Source: an uncultured Lachnospiraceae bacterium (GTDB lineage Bacteria > Bacillota > Clostridia > Lachnospirales > Lachnospiraceae). From it: 41,002 nt of DNA. Made by a program: the position numbers and the translations under genes. The stretch covers positions 1 through 41,002 of the forward strand of contig CBFFYP010000040.1 in the NCBI GenBank assembly GCA_965646165.1, given 5' to 3'. This document shows positions 1 through 33,915 of the stretch, in pieces. Positions within the stretch are counted from its first letter, which is position 1; each line of letters starts with the position of its first letter. Under the pieces are notes generated by a model. The model did no database searches. It was not told where the DNA came from and was given only the letters and a program-made list of their open reading frames with translations.

Positions 1-612
1 CGGGCTAAACACGCCCCTTTTTTTTCACACCCTGCATAGAAGCAGGATGTGAAAAAAATCTTAGGTTTTCGAGCAGAAGTCCAAGAACTTCTAACTTTTT
101 TCCAAAGTCACTGCAGGCTGCCCACCGTTTTCGAATCTGGCTGTTTCTTGACTCCGAAACAAAAAAGAATCACATTCTAACTTTTCTAAAAATCTGTTTC
201 TGTCCTGTAATAAAATATAATTTCTATCGCTATTCAATTAGCAGTCAGAGGCGGTTTGCTCCTGCCCTTTGCCTGCGACTTCGGAGAACGGTTAGAAAGT
301 CTTGGGTTTCTGTGGAATTACCTAGAATTTTTTGCATATCCTGCTTCTATGCAGGGTATGCAAAAAAAGGGGCGTGTTTAGCCCGGACGATAGGGAAGCG
401 GATGTTTTATGGTTGGTAATATCCTTCCTTACACCTGTTTCGTTTTGGTTGTTATGAGGGCGAATTGCGCCCCGGTTCGTCTGGTTGGATGAACCGAAAT
501 CAGAAGCCTTAGACTTTCTTACCGTTTGGAGCGGAGTAGGCAAAGGGCAGGAACAAACCGCCTCTGGCGTCCGGTGAAAGCCAGTATCCTATCTCCAAAA
601 GCCTAATGAAAG
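1..612. repeat. Family-1 composite structured repeat, copy A (may continue upstream of window start). Nested inverted repeats, two T-run/hairpin/A-run modules in opposite orientation, ends with ...CTGGCGTCCGGTG
   Basis: Blocks 1-60 and 328-386 are inverted copies of each other (CGGGCTAAACACGCCCC + T-run + hairpin + A-run). Blocks 246-300 and 515-580 are inverted copies (CAGAGGCGGTTTGCTCCTGCCCTTTGCC). The whole region recurs rearranged at 20437-21000 and 36003-36500. Confidence 0.8.
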
Positions 613-706
613 ATTGTATATCTTTTCTTTGCAATCTTTCTGTTCTTGTGCTAGAATAAAAGCAATAAGCTGTAAAACTGGAAATTGCCAGAAAGGACAA
701 GAAAGG

Positions 707-3715: not shown

Positions 3716-3717
3716 AG

Positions 3718-3793
3718 GAGGGGACGCCGAAAGCCGAAGGGAGTTCTATTCCGGGTTCGGAATGGATCTTTCGTTCGATTCCGGCGTCCTGAC
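3718..3793. repeat. Short palindromic family-1-type element straight after the polA stop (GGGGACGCCG ... CGGCGTCC outer stem with internal ATTCCGG/CCGGAAT hairpins). Likely doubles as a terminator.
   Basis: Outer 9-bp inverted repeat 3721-3729 / 3782-3790. Begins with the GGGACGCC hallmark shared by other copies. Confidence 0.6.
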
Positions 3794-6236: not shown

Positions 6237-6254
6237 GCGGAAGATTTTTGAAAG

Positions 6255-6322
6255 GGGGACGCCAGATTTCGGAACGGTTGGGTACTGCTGTTCCGAAATC
6301 TGGCTGTTTCTTGGCTTCTGAA
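6255..6322. repeat. Family-1 fragment / hairpin (GGGGGACGCCAGATTTCGGAACGG...CTGTTCCGAAATCTGGCTGTTTCTTG)
   Basis: 14-bp stem. The 3' arm matches block 130-160 of copy A (TTCGAATCTGGCTGTTTCTTG). Sits 20 nt after the stop of the preceding gene. Confidence 0.6.
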
Positions 6323-6423
6323 GAGAAAGTCTTATCGAAATTTTTCCGGTAGATGAAGTGATATAGGATGCAGCATTTGTAATGATTTTATGGGAAAGGA
6401 TTAGAATTAGGAGGAAGAAAATT

Positions 6424-16484: not shown

Positions 16485-16512
16485 TTGTTTTTTGTTATAA
16501 AATAGTTATAAT
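16485..16512 (+). promoter_or_regulatory. Sigma-A-type promoter for thi operon (-35 TTGTTT 16485-16490, -10 TATAAT 16507-16512)
   Basis: 16-nt spacer. Predicted TSS just before the riboswitch. Confidence 0.55.
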
Positions 16513-16519
16513 GTAAGAT

Positions 16520-16612
16520 ATGGGGAGCTTATTAGAATAGGCTGAGAGTAAGCATGTGAGGCTTTTACCCTTAAAACCTGATTTGGATAATGCCAACGTA
16601 GGGACATAGTTT
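16520..16612 (+). promoter_or_regulatory. TPP (THI-box) riboswitch
   Basis: GGGGAGC...CTGAGAG...ACCCTTAAAACCTGATTTGGATAATGCCAACGTAGGGA matches the THI element consensus. Lies upstream of thiM-thiE-thiD-thiC. Confidence 0.88.
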
Positions 16613-16623
16613 GCAAAGATAGG

Positions 16624-16661
16624 ATGCAGATATGCTTTTTTGGCGTATCTGCATTTTTTGT
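16624..16661 (+). terminator. Riboswitch expression-platform intrinsic terminator (GCAGATA...TATCTGC + TTTTTT)
   Basis: 7-bp stem followed by a T-run between the THI box and thiM. Confidence 0.6.
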
Positions 16662-16670
16662 GTGTAATTA

Positions 16671-16706
16671 GGAAGGACGCCAGAAAATGGGGTACTGTTG
16701 TGTATG
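16671..16706. repeat. Family-1 fragment (GGAAGGACGCCAGAAAATGGGGTACTGTTG)
   Basis: Matches 6255-6290 (GACGCCAGA...GGGTACTGCTG). Confidence 0.4.
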
Positions 16707-16766
16707 TTAAAATAGAATAAAATTTGGCAAATTTATGTTTCTAAGTGAGAAGAAGGAGGAACTGAA

Positions 16767-20424: not shown

Positions 20425-20436
20425 GATGAGGGGGTG

Positions 20437-21000
20437 CTTTCACCGGACGCCAGAGGCGGTTTGCTCCTGTCCTTTGCCTGCTCCGCTCCAAACGGTAAGA
20501 AAGTCTAGGGCTTCTGATTTCGGTTCATCCAACCGGACGAACCGGGGCGCAATTCGCCCTCATTTCAGCCGAAACATAATTGGTGTAAGGAAGAATTTTT
20601 CCAGCTACAAAACAGCCTCTTCTCTATTCTCCGGGCTAAACACGCCCCTTTTTTTGCATACCCTGCATGGAAGCAGGATATGCAAAAAATTCTAAGTTTT
20701 CGAACAGAAGCCCAAAACTTTCTAACCGTTCTCCGAAGTCGCTGGCAAAGGACAGGAGCAAACCGCCTCTCGCTGTTGGCTGAATAACAGTAGAAGTTAT
20801 ATTTTATTACAGAGCAAGTTTTCCGTAAAGTTTAGACATCATTCTTTTTTGTTTCGGAGTCAAGAAACAGTCAGATTCGAAAACAGTGGGCAGCCTGCAG
20901 TGACTTTGGAAAAAAGTTAGAACTTCTTGCTTTTTGGAAACTGGAACAGCAGGCTGCTCACTGTTTTCGAATTTGGCGTCCTCTGACGTCCTCTGGTGTT
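20437..21000. repeat. Family-1 composite structured repeat, copy B (largely the reverse complement of copy A blocks, one hairpin module only)
   Basis: 20440-20510 is the reverse complement of A 515-580. 20510-20625 is the reverse complement of A 387-520. 20632-20690 is the T-run/hairpin/A-run module. 20690-20990 is the reverse complement of A 60-300. Ends ...TTTGGCGTCCTCTGACGTCCTC. Confidence 0.8.
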
Positions 21001-23029: not shown

Positions 23030-23040
23030 AAGAGGACGCT

Positions 23041-23174
23041 AAAATCCGAAGGAAGGTCTGCTCCGGGTCCGCTTGCGCTTAGCATTTCCTCGTAGCGGAC
23101 ACATAAGGCGCTAAAACACAGCGCCTAAGTGCCGACGGGAAATGATGACCCTGTGCAGACCTTCCTTCGGATTT
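23041..23174 (+). repeat. Family-2 structured repeat, copy 1 (20-bp perfect terminal inverted repeat AAAATCCGAAGGAAGGTCTG / CAGACCTTCCTTCGGATTTT, two internal hairpins)
   Basis: Internal stems GTCCGCT/AGCGGAC and TTAGGCGCT/AGCGCCTAA. Preceded by GAGGACGC. Sits 11 nt after the GNAT stop. Confidence 0.8.
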
Positions 23175-23251
23175 TGGCTGTGTATTTCTGGCAGAAGAAC
23201 AGAATAATTATAAATGTTCAGGAATTAAGTAAAACTTATATAGATAGTGAT

Positions 23252-23632
23252 ATGGAAAGTATTGCAAAATATGTTGGTTTAACTGCTGATAAAGGGAATT
23301 TTAGTAAGAATAAAAATATGTTGTCTGTATTAAAAGACATAGTTTGGGAATGTATGAAACGTTGGAGCAAACTTATAAGGAGGTATTTGATTAAGATGGA
23401 GAGATGGACGATTACAGATGAAATAAGAGAATATTTACCATATACTTGTGCATATGCTGAGTTGTATGGTAAAAAGGTGTCAGAGAATGTATATGAAGTG
23501 GATTTGATTAGTACGTTTGAAACGCCTTCAAGGTATGAACATCAACCAGAATTGTTGTATGAGGAATGTATTAGGCTAGGAAAGAAATGGACGGATATTG
23601 TTTCAAGAGTAAAAAAGGGTATGATATTATAA
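23252..23632 (+). CDS. Hypothetical protein (AT-rich, no recognisable motifs)
   Basis: The ORF track gives 23129-23632, but its 5' part lies inside the repeat. First plausible start is ATG 23252. Confidence 0.3.
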   Translation: MESIAKYVGLTADKGNFSKNKNMLSVLKDIVWECMKRWSKLIRRYLIKMERWTITDEIREYLPYTCAYAELYGKKVSENVYEVDLISTFETPSRYEHQPELLYEECIRLGKKWTDIVSRVKKGMIL

Positions 23633-23861
23633 AAGTTGCAGTTTTTTTCTATCTTTTGATTCAAAAGTTGTTTGGATTGGAAGAAAGGGAGAAAAGGAAG
23701 GATGTATAATCGGACAGTGATTGATGTTGTACAACATACTACAACTTTTCAAGCAAGAAATCCAAGTGGATATGCTGTAAAAAACCGACATGTTTCGTTG
23801 GTATTTTGTCTTGAGCCAGAAATGGAATCAGAGATTACTTGCTATGAGTAAAAAAGTGAAA

Positions 23862-24028
23862 ATTCTGGCTGGTAGAAACAGCTGAAATGGGAAGAAAGGT
23901 CTATGCAGGGTCATCATTTCCCGTCGGCACTTAGGTGCTGTATTTTAGCACCTTAGTGTCCGCTACGAGGAAATGCTAAGCGAGAGCGGACCCGGAATAG
24001 ACCTTTCTTCCCATTTCAGCGTCCCCCT
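23862..24028 (-). repeat. Family-2 structured repeat, copy 2 (inverted relative to copy 1; overlaps the last codons and stop of the GH2 gene)
   Basis: 15-bp IR GGGAAGAAAGGTCTA/TAGACCTTTCTTCCC. Internal hairpin TTAGGTGCT/AGCACCTAA carries a compensatory pair relative to copy 1. GGGGGACGC terminus encodes ...RGGR-stop of the GH2 protein. Confidence 0.75.
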
Positions 24029-25779
24029 CGAATTTTTTGATTCCATTCAATCAGGGTTTGAGCATCGATTTTTAAAATTTTTCTGTCATAGGTAAAGATT
24101 CCGTTGATTTCTTCTTCTACGTCGGAAAGCTGTGTATAAACGGAAGCGGAAAGTCCGTTTTGAAATGCTGGAAAAATCAGTGTTTCCATTAATTTATGAT
24201 AGCCGTTTGTCAAAGATTTTCGGTTAGGAAAGGTGCGGTAGCCAAATGTTTTTGAGGAATAGCTATGTTTTGGTACATGCCAAGCGTAGCCGCCAAACTC
24301 AGTCAGAGCAAGTGCACGTCTTTCCGGGTGGAGAATCAGTGAGAAAAAGTAGTAGTGAATACTTTTGATATCTCCTCCGCCTTGATCGAACCAGCCGCTG
24401 GCATGATCGATCAGTCGTTCTGGATCCAGACTGCGAATCAGTTCTGCTGCAAAGAGTGCCCGAAATTGTCCCCAGCCTTCGTTAAATGGAACCCAGCATA
24501 TAATGCAGGGGTGGGAAGAGAGAAAGCGGATGCTGGAAACCATTTCTTTTGCCCATTCTTTTCTGCCTTCTTTATTTTGACGTGAAAGCAGTGCATGAGG
24601 GTGATCGAAAACTCTTTTGCCGGAATAGTTAAAAAGGGTTGCCATATAAGTAACAAACCAGTGATGATAATGACTTCCGCCGTTTACCATATCCTGCCAG
24701 ACTAAAATACCAAGCCGATCACAGGTATAATACCAGCGTTCGGATTCGATTTTCAGATGTTTTCGTATCATATTAAAGCCTAGTTTTTTTACAGAAAGGA
24801 TATCAAAGATCATGGCTTCTTCGCATGGCGGGGTGTAAAGACCGTCCGGCCAGTATCCCTGATCGAGGATTCCGACTTGAGGATAAGGACGGTTGTTGAG
24901 AAAAATTCGCCGAATCCCATTAGAATCCGTTTGTATATCACATTTTCGAAGAGCAAAGTAACTAGATACTTGATCGGTGGCAGTTGTAATGGTTACTTGA
25001 TATAGATAGGGATGTTCCGGGCTCCATGGATAAAATTCTTTAATTGGAATCAGGAAGCTTTGATTGCTGGTAATGGAGTAAGAACATGTGCCGGACGGAA
25101 GAAGCAGCTTGATGGAAGCAGGACAAGTTTCTTTAGTAGAAATCTTGACAGTTATTTCTTTTTTATCATAGTTGGGAGTGAATTTTATATAGCGTATAAA
25201 ATTATCCGGTACAATTTCCATCCAAACCGTCTGCCAGATACCGCTTTGTGCCGTATAAAACATACCACTGTTATGCAGTTTTTGTTTTCCACGGCTGTGA
25301 TAGGAGGTATCGCTGGGATCGGTAACTCGAACAAAGAGATCACAGATCTCTTGAGATTGGAAGGTGTCTTGAACTGCTTCTGTAATATTTATAGAAAAAG
25401 GGAGATAACCTCCGCTGTGTGATCCGACTTCTTTTTGATTGATATAAACGGTGCAGGATTGATCGACTGCACCAAAATGCAGATAGAGTCGTTCGGTAGG
25501 TTGGAGTTGTAAAAAAGAAATCGTTCTGTGATACCAAAGAAATTCATTTGGTTTTAATTGGCGTTTTACTCCTGATAATTGGGATTCAGGAGAAAATGGA
25601 ACTAAAATTTTTCCCTTATAGGCGGAGGGAAATTTGGCGTTTCGGCTGATGGTATAGTCCCAATAGCCATTTAAATTGATATAAGAGGAGCGAACCATAG
25701 TAGGACGGGGGTATTCCTGCCAGACATTTGTTTCTGTAATATGTTTGGTCCAGTAGGTTTCTAGCGTATGTTTTTTCAT
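24016..25779 (-). CDS. Glycoside hydrolase family 2 enzyme (beta-glucuronidase/beta-galactosidase-like), cytoplasmic
   Basis: N-terminal sugar-binding LNGYWDY...HFGAVDQSCTVYINQKEVGSHSGGYLPF aligns with E. coli GusA LDGLWAF...RFDAVTHYGKVWVNNQEVMEHQGGYTPF. NE catalytic region WVPFNEGWG. Confidence 0.85.
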   Translation of the reverse strand: MKKHTLETYWTKHITETNVWQEYPRPTMVRSSYINLNGYWDYTISRNAKFPSAYKGKILVPFSPESQLSGVKRQLKPNEFLWYHRTISFLQLQPTERLYLHFGAVDQSCTVYINQKEVGSHSGGYLPFSINITEAVQDTFQSQEICDLFVRVTDPSDTSYHSRGKQKLHNSGMFYTAQSGIWQTVWMEIVPDNFIRYIKFTPNYDKKEITVKISTKETCPASIKLLLPSGTCSYSITSNQSFLIPIKEFYPWSPEHPYLYQVTITTATDQVSSYFALRKCDIQTDSNGIRRIFLNNRPYPQVGILDQGYWPDGLYTPPCEEAMIFDILSVKKLGFNMIRKHLKIESERWYYTCDRLGILVWQDMVNGGSHYHHWFVTYMATLFNYSGKRVFDHPHALLSRQNKEGRKEWAKEMVSSIRFLSSHPCIICWVPFNEGWGQFRALFAAELIRSLDPERLIDHASGWFDQGGGDIKSIHYYFFSLILHPERRALALTEFGGYAWHVPKHSYSSKTFGYRTFPNRKSLTNGYHKLMETLIFPAFQNGLSASVYTQLSDVEEEINGIFTYDRKILKIDAQTLIEWNQKIRGGR

Positions 25780-30300: not shown

Positions 30301-30302
30301 TA

Positions 30303-30470
30303 AGGGAAACGCTGAAATCCAAAAGGGGGTCTGCTCCGGGCTCGCTTGCGCTTAGCATTTCCTATTTTCATAGCGGACACATAAGGCACTAAAATACAGC
30401 AACACAGTGCTTAAGTGCCGACGGGAAATGATGACCCTGCATAGAACCCCATTTGGCTTTCGGCTGTGTG
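30303..30470 (+). repeat. Family-2 structured repeat, copy 3
   Basis: Begins GGGAAACGCTGAAATCC 3 nt after the pepD stop. Outer arms GGGGGTCTGC / GCATAGAACCCC covary with copy 1 (AAGG/CCTT to GGGG/CCCC). Confidence 0.75.
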
Positions 30471-30647
30471 TACCTGATTGACATAATTTTTTAGCACCTG
30501 ATTTGTGCAGATTTTTGATTGTGTGTTGTTAGATTAGGGAAAGTTTTTTATATTTGGAGTATTTTGATTTAGAGGACGGGAGTTATGATGTTGTGATAGC
30601 TGAGAGAAAATGAAGTGGATTTATGATGAGAAGAAAAAGGAGACAGT

Positions 30648-31727: not shown

Positions 31728-31785
31728 AAGAAGATTCTAGAAATGACATAGCTTAGGCTATGTCATTTTTGGTATACTCTTTTGT

Positions 31786-33698: not shown

Positions 33699-33744
33699 GG
33701 GAAACTCCTTTTTGTAGTTGTTGTTAGTGATTGATTTTGTTGAA

Positions 33745-33915
33745 GAAGGGACGCCAAAGCTCCAAGGAAGGTCTGTTCCGGGCTCGCTTGTGCTTAGCAT
33801 TTCTTATTTCCTCATAGCGGACACTAAGGCGCTAAAACACAGCAACACAACGTCTAAGTGCCGAGATGACCCTGCGCAGACCTTCCTTGGGGCTTTGGCT
33901 GTGTATTTCGAGCGA
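33745..33915 (+). repeat. Family-2 structured repeat, copy 4
   Basis: GGGACGCCAAAGCTCCAAGGAAGGTCTG ... CAGACCTTCCTTGGGGCTTTGG. Outer stem retains pairing via T-G wobble after a double substitution relative to copy 1. Confidence 0.75.

Follow-up and report, generated by a model that had tools for sequence, protein, structure and literature searches.

A lineage-restricted superfamily of non-coding hairpin repeats, apparently undescribed, in a Lachnospiraceae genome

Abundant repeats of the repetitive extragenic palindromic (REP) type and the enzymes that act on them have been well studied in Proteobacteria, while the hairpin-forming miniature inverted-repeat transposable elements (MITEs) of bacteria, such as Correia/NEMIS, ERIC, RUP, BOX and bcr1, are defined by conserved terminal inverted repeats matching those of a parent insertion sequence (IS) and by defined target duplications. 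Here we describe repeats in a 41,002-nt stretch of DNA (hereafter, the window), contig CBFFYP010000040.1 of an uncultured Lachnospiraceae bacterium (assembly GCA_965646165.1), that share features with these systems and fail the defining tests of each known family with which they were compared. The elements constitute a real, lineage-restricted and apparently undescribed superfamily of non-coding hairpin repeats; our literature search found no description of them, nor of anything comparable in Lachnospiraceae. We consider it probable, though well short of certain, that they are non-autonomous (or formerly mobile) DNA elements, akin to MITEs and to paired REP hairpins (REPINs), that are recognized by their fold.

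A first-pass annotation of the window had proposed that repeats of different internal sequence share the ends GGACGCC and GGCGTCC. This is borne out: the 7-mer GGACGCC occurs at 13 sites on the two strands against 1.22 expected, a number reached in none of 100 shuffled sequences, and ten of these sites lie at repeat ends, the three intragenic ones (3393, 17329 and 33626) being about the number given by chance. The motif is not an ordinary k-mer but one enriched at element ends. The 8-mer hallmark listed in the annotation, GGGACGCC, is also truly enriched (five exact sites only, 0.34 expected by chance), but its coordinates were approximate and three of the listed sites hold one- or two-base variants of the terminus: GAGGACGCT (GGACGCT) at 23032; GGGGGACGCT (GGACGCT), on the minus strand, at 24021; and GGGAAACGCT (AAACGCT) at 30304. 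All four inverse GGCGTCC ends exist, two of them at corrected positions (20975 and 36495 in place of 20981 and 36490). Repeat detection and self-BLAST confirmed two repeat families with short forms; a fragment at 14026-14053 was absent from the earlier list. All elements together amount to ~2.5 kb, or 6.2% of the window (Table 1).

The anatomy of the elements was established with additional sequence from the same genome, obtained through exact-protein look-ups (loci outside the window carry L numbers); one of these, L057 (NCBI GCA_951800365.1), shares 99.98% identity with the window along 14.4 kb. The basic unit is a single long rod-like hairpin of 70-350 nt that reads, 5' to 3', purine run, GGAC, GCY-AGA, arm (15-25 nt), module, complementary arm, TCT-RGC and TGTTTCYT, with the consensus RRGGACGCY-AGA for the 5' foot and TCT-RGCTGTTTC for the 3' tail. 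GCY-AGA pairs and covaries with TCT-RGC (GCC with GGC, GCT with AGC), while the two outer ends of a single unit differ (GGACGCC versus GGCTGTTTC). The apical module is M1 in family 1 and M2 in family 2, or is absent, as in the short unit at 6251-6320. M1 spans ~180 nt in L017-type genomes and, because of an apical insert, ~260 nt in the window species; its internal loop is fixed as CAATTC (CAAUUC) opposite TAAACA (UAAACA) and is flanked by covarying helices. M2 (~95 nt) retains long invariant stretches, and both modules have fixed bulges and internal loops. Elements with two unrelated cores share a foot and a tail, forming one repeat superfamily.

Family-1 elements are composites, mosaics of ~550-760 nt made of one unit, an AT-rich spacer that is often a tandem repeat, and a second unit in reverse, so that they begin with GGACGCC and finish with GGCGTCC. 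Inverted composites of this kind lie at 1-581 (L001:5997-6757), 20436-20987, L001:2202-2623, L017:8470-9127, L045:5640-6412 and L012:7230-7715; the spacers in L017 are tandem repeats, unrelated to each other, with periods of 66, 45 and 39 nt. Family-2 elements are ~150 nt long, and in the short element at 3716-3793 a pair of family-2-type left arms is fused head to head. Some copies are nested, truncated or interrupted by an IS, and three truncated fragments or neighbors abut relics of mobile elements (a TnpB remnant, an IS607-type recombinase gene, and an IS630 copy with an IS5-like remnant). Short tandem duplications are seen at the outer ends of units in the window at 20975-21000 (GGCGTCCTCTGACGTCCTCTG), at L001:2617-2665 (GTCCGGTGAAAG, two copies) and at L017:19766-19818 (GATGGCAGGGGAG, four copies).

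Comparison with REP sequences, bacterial interspersed mosaic elements (BIMEs) and REPINs reveals a partial likeness. As in those systems, abundant extragenic palindromes lie behind genes, often as inverted pairs folding into larger hairpins; an unpaired conserved tag stands beside the stem, compensatory change maintains pairing, and the elements may terminate or stabilize transcripts and act as substrates for rearrangement. The BIME-like behavior suggested by the first-pass annotation stands as far as inverted unit pairs go, and the composites resemble the inverted pairs of REPINs, but the features that define REPs are lacking. Units exceed REPs in length 3- to 10-fold and include large conserved apical modules, only the 44-nt hairpin at 6261-6304 approaching the 20-40 nt of a REP; the stem is variable and the foot and apex are conserved, the reverse of a REPIN; the tag is a purine run plus GGAC instead of a 5' GTAG or CGTC at the hairpin foot, CGTC being confined to the complementary strand, on its 3' side; the host belongs to the Firmicutes; and no REP-associated tyrosine transposase (RAYT) was found in the sequence searched (see below). 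That the elements work like REP/BIME sequences is a reasonable statement; that they are a RAYT system is unproven.

CGTC-REPs, found mainly in alpha-proteobacteria, combine a 5' CGTC tag with stems of 8-9 bp starting with A/T pairs, loops of 4-5 nt and a CCA tail, and, like our elements, occur predominantly as head-to-head dimers and have no known dedicated transposase; the survey describing them nowhere mentions Firmicutes or Clostridia (Di Nocera et al. 2013, PMC3733652). Although the inverse terminus GGCGTCC contains CGTC, our elements carry the tag as 5'-GACG on the element strand, with stems of 30-100 bp and a TGTTTC tail. Integron attC sites, which are recognized as folded single-stranded DNA, as we propose for our elements, share with them short conserved ends around a sequence-variable, self-complementary center, unpaired conserved bases that mark the strand and a position directly behind the preceding stop codon. 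However, there are no RYYYAAC/GTTRRRY cores and no cassette array beside intI; the elements have conserved apical modules and are scattered behind housekeeping genes whose synteny is conserved in relatives. Correia/NEMIS, ERIC, RUP, BOX and bcr1 are likewise small non-coding mosaic repeats, often co-transcribed and expanded in particular lineages, but our elements have asymmetric ends and hypervariable arms, and neither a parent IS nor a target duplication was found.

The evidence for a conserved fold is extensive. Compared with shuffled sequence, both the single units and the composites give far better folds (z = -9.6, -13.1 and -3.75). In an alignment of nine family-2 (M2) sequences, 23 of 57 pairs changed on both sides, with 50 double-change cells against nine one-sided (G-U) cells; among seven M1 short-type sequences the corresponding values were 41 of 90 pairs and 82 against seven. 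For both alignments, none of 500 shuffles reached the observed value and slid controls gave 3-10 pairs. The arms evolve far faster than the foot and modules, and are the fastest-evolving part of the unit, yet they remain paired: three units in L017 have 25/25 complementary arms that are mutually unrelated, while the M1 modules of two of these are ~95% identical as judged by eye. Between genomes, arms show recognizable themes that diverge stepwise with compensation, for example GGCGGTTTGCTCCTGTCCTTTGCC, GGTGGTTTGCCGGTTTCCTTTCTTT and GGCGGTGGGCTCGTTTCCTTTGTCT. No arm sequence matched elsewhere in any locus compared, so the arms are not spacer-like acquisitions; this, together with the gradual, compensated divergence of homologous themes, led us to reject a role as spacer-like guides. 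Self-templating of the whole hairpin at every transposition is contradicted by the conserved bulges and internal loops of M1 and M2. What is conserved is a short foot and a fold, as would be predicted if one enzyme recognizes the folded end. The proposal that a single enzyme reads the shared ends therefore gains from the common foot and tail of M1, M2 and coreless elements, but its candidate, a RAYT or Y1 tnpA, was not found in the sequence available.

The pattern of change also bears on the strand that carries the fold. By our own tally, mismatch cells are about strand-symmetric (G.U versus A.C, 9 against 11 and 7 against 8), and for seven of ten family-2 units the lower predicted energy is that of the reverse complement. 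Strand symmetry and the rarity of wobble pairs make selection on the sense transcript alone a less good fit, and the alignments fit a fold that would matter on DNA, through either strand or through hairpin-templated correction, more than in the sense transcript only. The pattern is nevertheless compatible with a role as RNA.

The units lie mostly just behind genes, though "nearly all after stop codons", as first proposed, was an overstatement: seven of the twelve loci in the window conform, and the other five (1-581, 14026, 16672, 33744 and 36009) do not lie directly behind a stop. Of the 24 independent left ends in the full set of loci, 16 fall within 71 nt downstream of a co-oriented stop codon. 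GGACGC begins 6 nt past the stop of polA, 20 nt past that of the actin-like gene, 32 nt past that of a gene for a 370-aa protein, 20 nt past thiC, 4 nt past the GNAT gene and 5 nt past pepD, and it overlaps the GH2 stop codon. By Pfam, the gene context comprises polA, coaE, an FtsA/MreB/PilM-like gene, thiC, GNAT, GH2 and an M20 peptidase; the 370-aa protein has no Pfam match, so its earlier label "hipA-like" is unsupported. In this small sample, single units mostly stand foot-first behind their gene, with exceptions at 33744 and L045:2478, and at 24030 the minus-strand unit follows a gene that is itself on the minus strand, an arrangement that favors a connection with transcription over one with replication.

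Some units may act on transcripts. The 44-nt hairpin at 6261-6304, with 18 pairs and the tail TGTTTCTTGG, ranks first among the terminator-like sites of the window's first 20 kb; long units exceed the loop limit of the scanner, and their tails contain 4-6 T in eight positions. Ordinary terminators are present in the window as well (31737-31772 and 16621-16657). In Escherichia coli, REPs within ~15 nt of a stop codon can stall terminating ribosomes, and by analogy the units 0-6 nt past the polA, GNAT and pepD stops could exert a similar effect.

Comparison with relatives reveals gains of elements in some lineages that are not seen in close relatives. The syntenic relative L017, whose genes are ~80% identical to those of the window, has M1-type units after thiC (the same site as in the window, with other arms), an NAPRTase gene and an M23 peptidase gene, while its family-2 sites are empty. 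No units are present in L020 (10.8 kb), L022 (9.6 kb) or L014 (21 kb); the family-2 and thiC sites are empty in L020/L022, the site behind pepD (30302-30475 in the window) is empty in L017 and L020, and between its GNAT and GH2 genes L020 has an ordinary bidirectional terminator. Insertion has occurred at gene 3' ends and once into coding sequence: as the first-pass annotation had recognized, an element supplies the end of the GH2 gene, where it replaced the last five codons and provides RGGR and the stop (...EWNQKIRGGR* in the window, ...EWNQKIKNLFL* or ...KNLIE* in orthologues). Both families also occur in the metagenome-assembled genome "uncultured Lachnospiraceae bacterium MGBC128194" and in a few metagenome contigs; in a metagenome scan, 6 of the 20 stretches returned were real, and in one contig M1 has been invaded by an insertion sequence. 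No matches were found in viral contigs, plasmids or phages, and carriage on such replicons was discarded as a candidate. In Rfam, only HEARO and the thiamine pyrophosphate (TPP) riboswitch passed the gathering score, permissive hits of the elements being microRNA-precursor-like with E >= 0.015.

The elements also mark apparent rearrangement junctions. L002/L046 (ERZ27298417 k141_216240) shows a 36-kb inversion between the inverted copies 1 and 3, L045:5560-6620 joins ruvAB to copy 3, and in L053:1-2492 the pepD-site unit is preceded by an unrelated 822-aa gene. Many metagenome contigs end inside elements, and these three alternative junctions could be real recombinants or assembly chimeras. 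Exact 141-mers are unlikely to be shared by copies that are just 85-90% alike, which would favor real recombination.

These observations have led us to propose a model whereby a trans-acting enzyme would recognize the unit as a folded single strand, by its foot and module, and would move or copy it, leaving the arm sequence free to drift. Pairing of the arms would be restored by selection or by hairpin-templated correction, and units would persist mainly just behind stops, oriented with the upstream gene, where promoters are spared. There, the hairpin and T-rich tail may serve as a terminator or protect the mRNA end, and copies probably also act as substrates for rearrangement. A bolder form of the model, which we regard as doubtful, posits a new Firmicute class of structure-recognized mobile hairpins in which a single-strand-specific enzyme (HUH, tyrosine or other) reads the 10-13 nt foot and the apical module, while arms of 20-25 nt are sequence-free and kept perfectly paired by hairpin-templated correction. 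Over the ~70 kb sampled, the density is about one unit per 3-4 kb; if such a class exists at this density, the family would occupy ~5% of the genome, among the heaviest small-repeat loads in the phylum.

Several results weigh against mobile, fold-recognized DNA. Neither a cognate transposase nor a cognate recombinase was found, and none of the unit-flanked genes resembles one; Y1/RAYT and IS200/IS605 tnpA genes, which the first-pass annotation had suggested as candidates, are absent from the window and from ~60 kb of additional sequence of the same genome. Presence differs between related genomes, as insertion polymorphism would require, but among near-identical strains all sites examined were occupied, and copies within the window genome show just 85-87% similarity, giving no indication that the elements are active in this species at present. 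Exact ends, target site and duplication are not definable, since the empty sites come from genomes of ~80% identity in which intergenic DNA is unalignable. The taxonomic range is poorly sampled, at least three stretches having matched in the scan of a genome collection. The similarity of modules within a genome could result from gene conversion instead of recent transposition, and the conservation of M1 and M2 with their internal loops could equally mean a host RNA function.

The latter possibility is best expressed as a rival in which the elements are functional structured RNAs of 3' untranslated regions (terminators, stabilizers, RNase III substrates or small-RNA precursors), selected for their fold and spread by duplication and recombination without a dedicated transposase. 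The extensive compensatory covariation and the conserved CAAUUC/UAAACA loops of M1 would be accounted for in this way, as would the position of most single units, with left ends close behind stops and in the orientation of the upstream gene, the T-rich 3' tail and the terminator score of the short unit. However, strand-symmetric mismatches, few G-U intermediates and an antisense strand that folds equally well or better weigh against it; perfect 25-bp helices are unusual among functional bacterial RNAs, no Rfam family was matched, and close relatives use ordinary terminators at the same sites, as does the window itself elsewhere. Truncated, nested and anti-oriented copies (33744 and L045:2478), and the copy that damaged a coding end, are also at odds with this account, which we consider rather unlikely.

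Two further accounts retain mobility and assign it to a described class of enzyme. In a true REP/BIME-RAYT system, a single-copy IS200-like Y1 transposase encoded elsewhere would bind the foot and unpaired 5' tag on single-stranded DNA and copy inverted pairs as REPINs. The density of extragenic repeats, their frequent inverted pairing, the conserved unpaired GGAC beside a conserved stem base and the conservation of pairing rather than sequence all suit this scheme, and relics of the IS200/IS605 superfamily (HEARO/IscB and the TnpB remnant) are present in the window. But units of 70-350 nt with large apical modules are not 20-40 nt REPs, a GTAG tag is lacking, CGTC is found only as the 3'-side complement, unlike in published CGTC-REPs, the ~100 kb examined contains no Y1/RAYT gene, the end hairpins of the IscB element are unrelated to the foot, and Firmicutes and Clostridia go unmentioned in the REP survey (PMC3733652); we judge this account quite unlikely. 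Alternatively, the elements might be ordinary MITEs mobilized by a DDE transposase, such as an IS630/Tc1-like enzyme that inserts at TA, acting on double-stranded inverted repeats, with the hairpin as a by-product. An IS630-family transposase gene does adjoin a family-2 unit, several left ends abut TAG or TAA, and there is a TA within the conserved family-2 tail. Nevertheless, the arms, which would be the inverted repeats, are the least conserved part, only the ~10-13 nt foot being conserved, and the two unit ends differ; none of the IS630, IS5-like and IS607-like copies of the window has ends matching those of units; and no consistent TA or TAR flank was found, only 11 of 32 ends having TA[AG] in the 14 nt upstream, while tail conservation runs past the TA. 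Nor would recognition of double-stranded ends lead one to expect compensatory evolution along the whole rod. IS630 ends and a TA duplication are unsupported, and a DDE origin appears very improbable.

A conserved foot and apex, sequence-free paired arms and two unrelated cores make recognition of fold rather than sequence directly testable, and the patchy distribution among close relatives makes the enzyme searchable by phylogenetic co-occurrence. In practical terms, the elements break metagenome assemblies of this species, and lying a few bases from the stops of polA, thiC and pepD they may affect expression of these core genes.

Table 1. Coordinates of terminal motifs and repeat elements in the window.
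Feature	Position	Strand	Details
GGACGCC at repeat ends	3722, 6257, 10116, 16675, 20445, 33749	+	
GGACGCC at repeat ends	566, 3783, 20975, 36495	-	
Exact GGGACGCC	3721, 6256, 10115, 33748, 33625		33625 is intragenic
Family 1, composite copy 1	1-581		Left unit cut by window start; full element L001:5997-6757, GGACGCC...GGCGTCC
Copy 1, E-type unit	M1 1-112; E arm 113-135; tail 133-150		Tail TCTGGCTGTTTCTTG; spacer 151-245
Copy 1, inverted A-type unit	A arm 250-276; M1 277-538; A' arm 539-562		GGCGTCC 566-572
Copy 1, right end	573-581		Conserved GGTGAAAGC
Degenerate, truncated 5' fragment of a further unit	582-625	+	..CCAGTATCCTATCTCCAAAAGCCTAATGAAAG; a TCTCCAAAAGCCTAAT stretch also follows the foot at 10116
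Short symmetric element	3716-3793	+	GGGGACGCC...GGCGTCC; begins 1-6 nt past polA stop
Module-free short unit	6251-6320	+	Foot GGGGGACGCC-AGA, 14-nt arms, 10-nt loop, tail TCT-GGCTGTTTCTTGG
Truncated 5' fragment (short form)	10110-10155	+	Foot, arm, M1 start; then TnpB pseudogene remnant
Truncated 5' fragment	14026-14053	+	GGACGCA and family-2-type arm GGAATCCAAAGAAAGATCCAC; just upstream of IS607-type serine-recombinase gene
Decayed short unit (truncated 5' fragment)	16672-16710	+	AGGACGCCAGAAAATGGGGTACTGTTGTG; between TPP-riboswitch terminator and thiM, not behind a stop codon
Family 1, composite copy 2	20436-20987		Begins ~10 nt past thiC stop
Copy 2, left A-type unit	20436-20790		Foot 20445-20454; A arm 20455-20481; M1 20482-20743; A' arm 20744-20770
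Copy 2, remainder	Spacer 20791-20858; inverted E-type unit 20859-20987		M1 internally deleted; GGCGTCC 20975-20981
Family-2 unit (M2)	23030-23185	+	Begins 1-4 nt past GNAT stop
Family-2 unit	23878-24030	-	Supplies GH2 last codons (RGGR) and stop
Family-2 unit	30302-30475	+	Directly past pepD stop, TGATAA/GGGAAACGC
Family-2 unit	33744-33909	+	Between two minus-strand genes, adjoins IS630 copy; not co-oriented with upstream gene
Family 1, composite copy 3	36009-36507		Left unit truncated beside IS5-like remnant; A-type remnant 36009-36075, then spacer
Copy 3, inverted E-type unit with M1	36160-36507		GGCGTCC 36495-36501

Several neighboring genes were considered as candidate mobilizing enzymes or cargo. 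A 167-aa open reading frame (ORF; 23129-23632) between two family-2 units was rejected as a transposase, as it has no Pfam, NCBIfam or PHROG match; it has only two homologues among 5.8 billion proteins. The AT-rich segment between these convergent units (23186-23877) encodes only the C-terminal part of a larger gene, of which L056 carries a longer version without flanking units, and the segment is absent from L017 and L020. The IS607-type serine recombinase gene (14103-14816) was discarded as unit cargo, a foot-plus-arm fragment lying upstream with no matching arm or tail downstream.

The ends of the resident IscB/HEARO element do not resemble the foot: hairpins of the form CCCAYCSCC-TAAA-GGSARTGGG lie at both of its ends, unlike GCCAGA..TCTGGC, and the occurrence of GGAGGACGCC inside the IscB 3' end looks coincidental. 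The HEARO (IscB omega) RNA at 40853-41002 begins 22 nt past the stop of an adh_short gene and is cut by the end of the window. The IscB gene itself (RRXRR and HNH, 423 aa) is found in L043:5880-7430 with no adjacent tnpA, and since contigs from other samples break ~230 nt into the element, it is probably multicopy.

L017 lacks the island at 8971-14816, its vault-like and NAPRTase genes standing side by side. The island comprises the 370-aa orphan protein, the IS607-type serine recombinase gene without a tnpB, a TnpB pseudogene remnant at ~10290-10530 with the motif IAVEDLNVKGMMK, and a 1086-aa BspA-LRR/choline-binding surface protein. The vault-like gene (6382-8922) encodes an 846-aa protein with a Major Vault Protein shoulder and Vault_3 repeats, unusual in a bacterium, and is conserved in L017. 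The radical-SAM gene at 38083-40002 (Radical_SAM_N and DUF3362) is broken into two ORFs (379 and 258 aa) in the window, while the same-species contigs L043-L048 have one ORF of 638-639 aa, suggesting that this assembly has a stop or frameshift there or that the gene is a pseudogene.

A TPP riboswitch with its terminator (16511-16621) precedes the thiM-thiE-thiD-thiC operon in the window, where a decayed unit lies downstream of it; L017 has a full M1 unit and a 66-nt tandem repeat upstream of the riboswitch. At L029:530-2140, an M1 module is interrupted at GGGCTAAACAC, which is duplicated on both sides, by a ~1.6-kb insertion sequence whose ends are CATAAGTGAGAACTTAAG.

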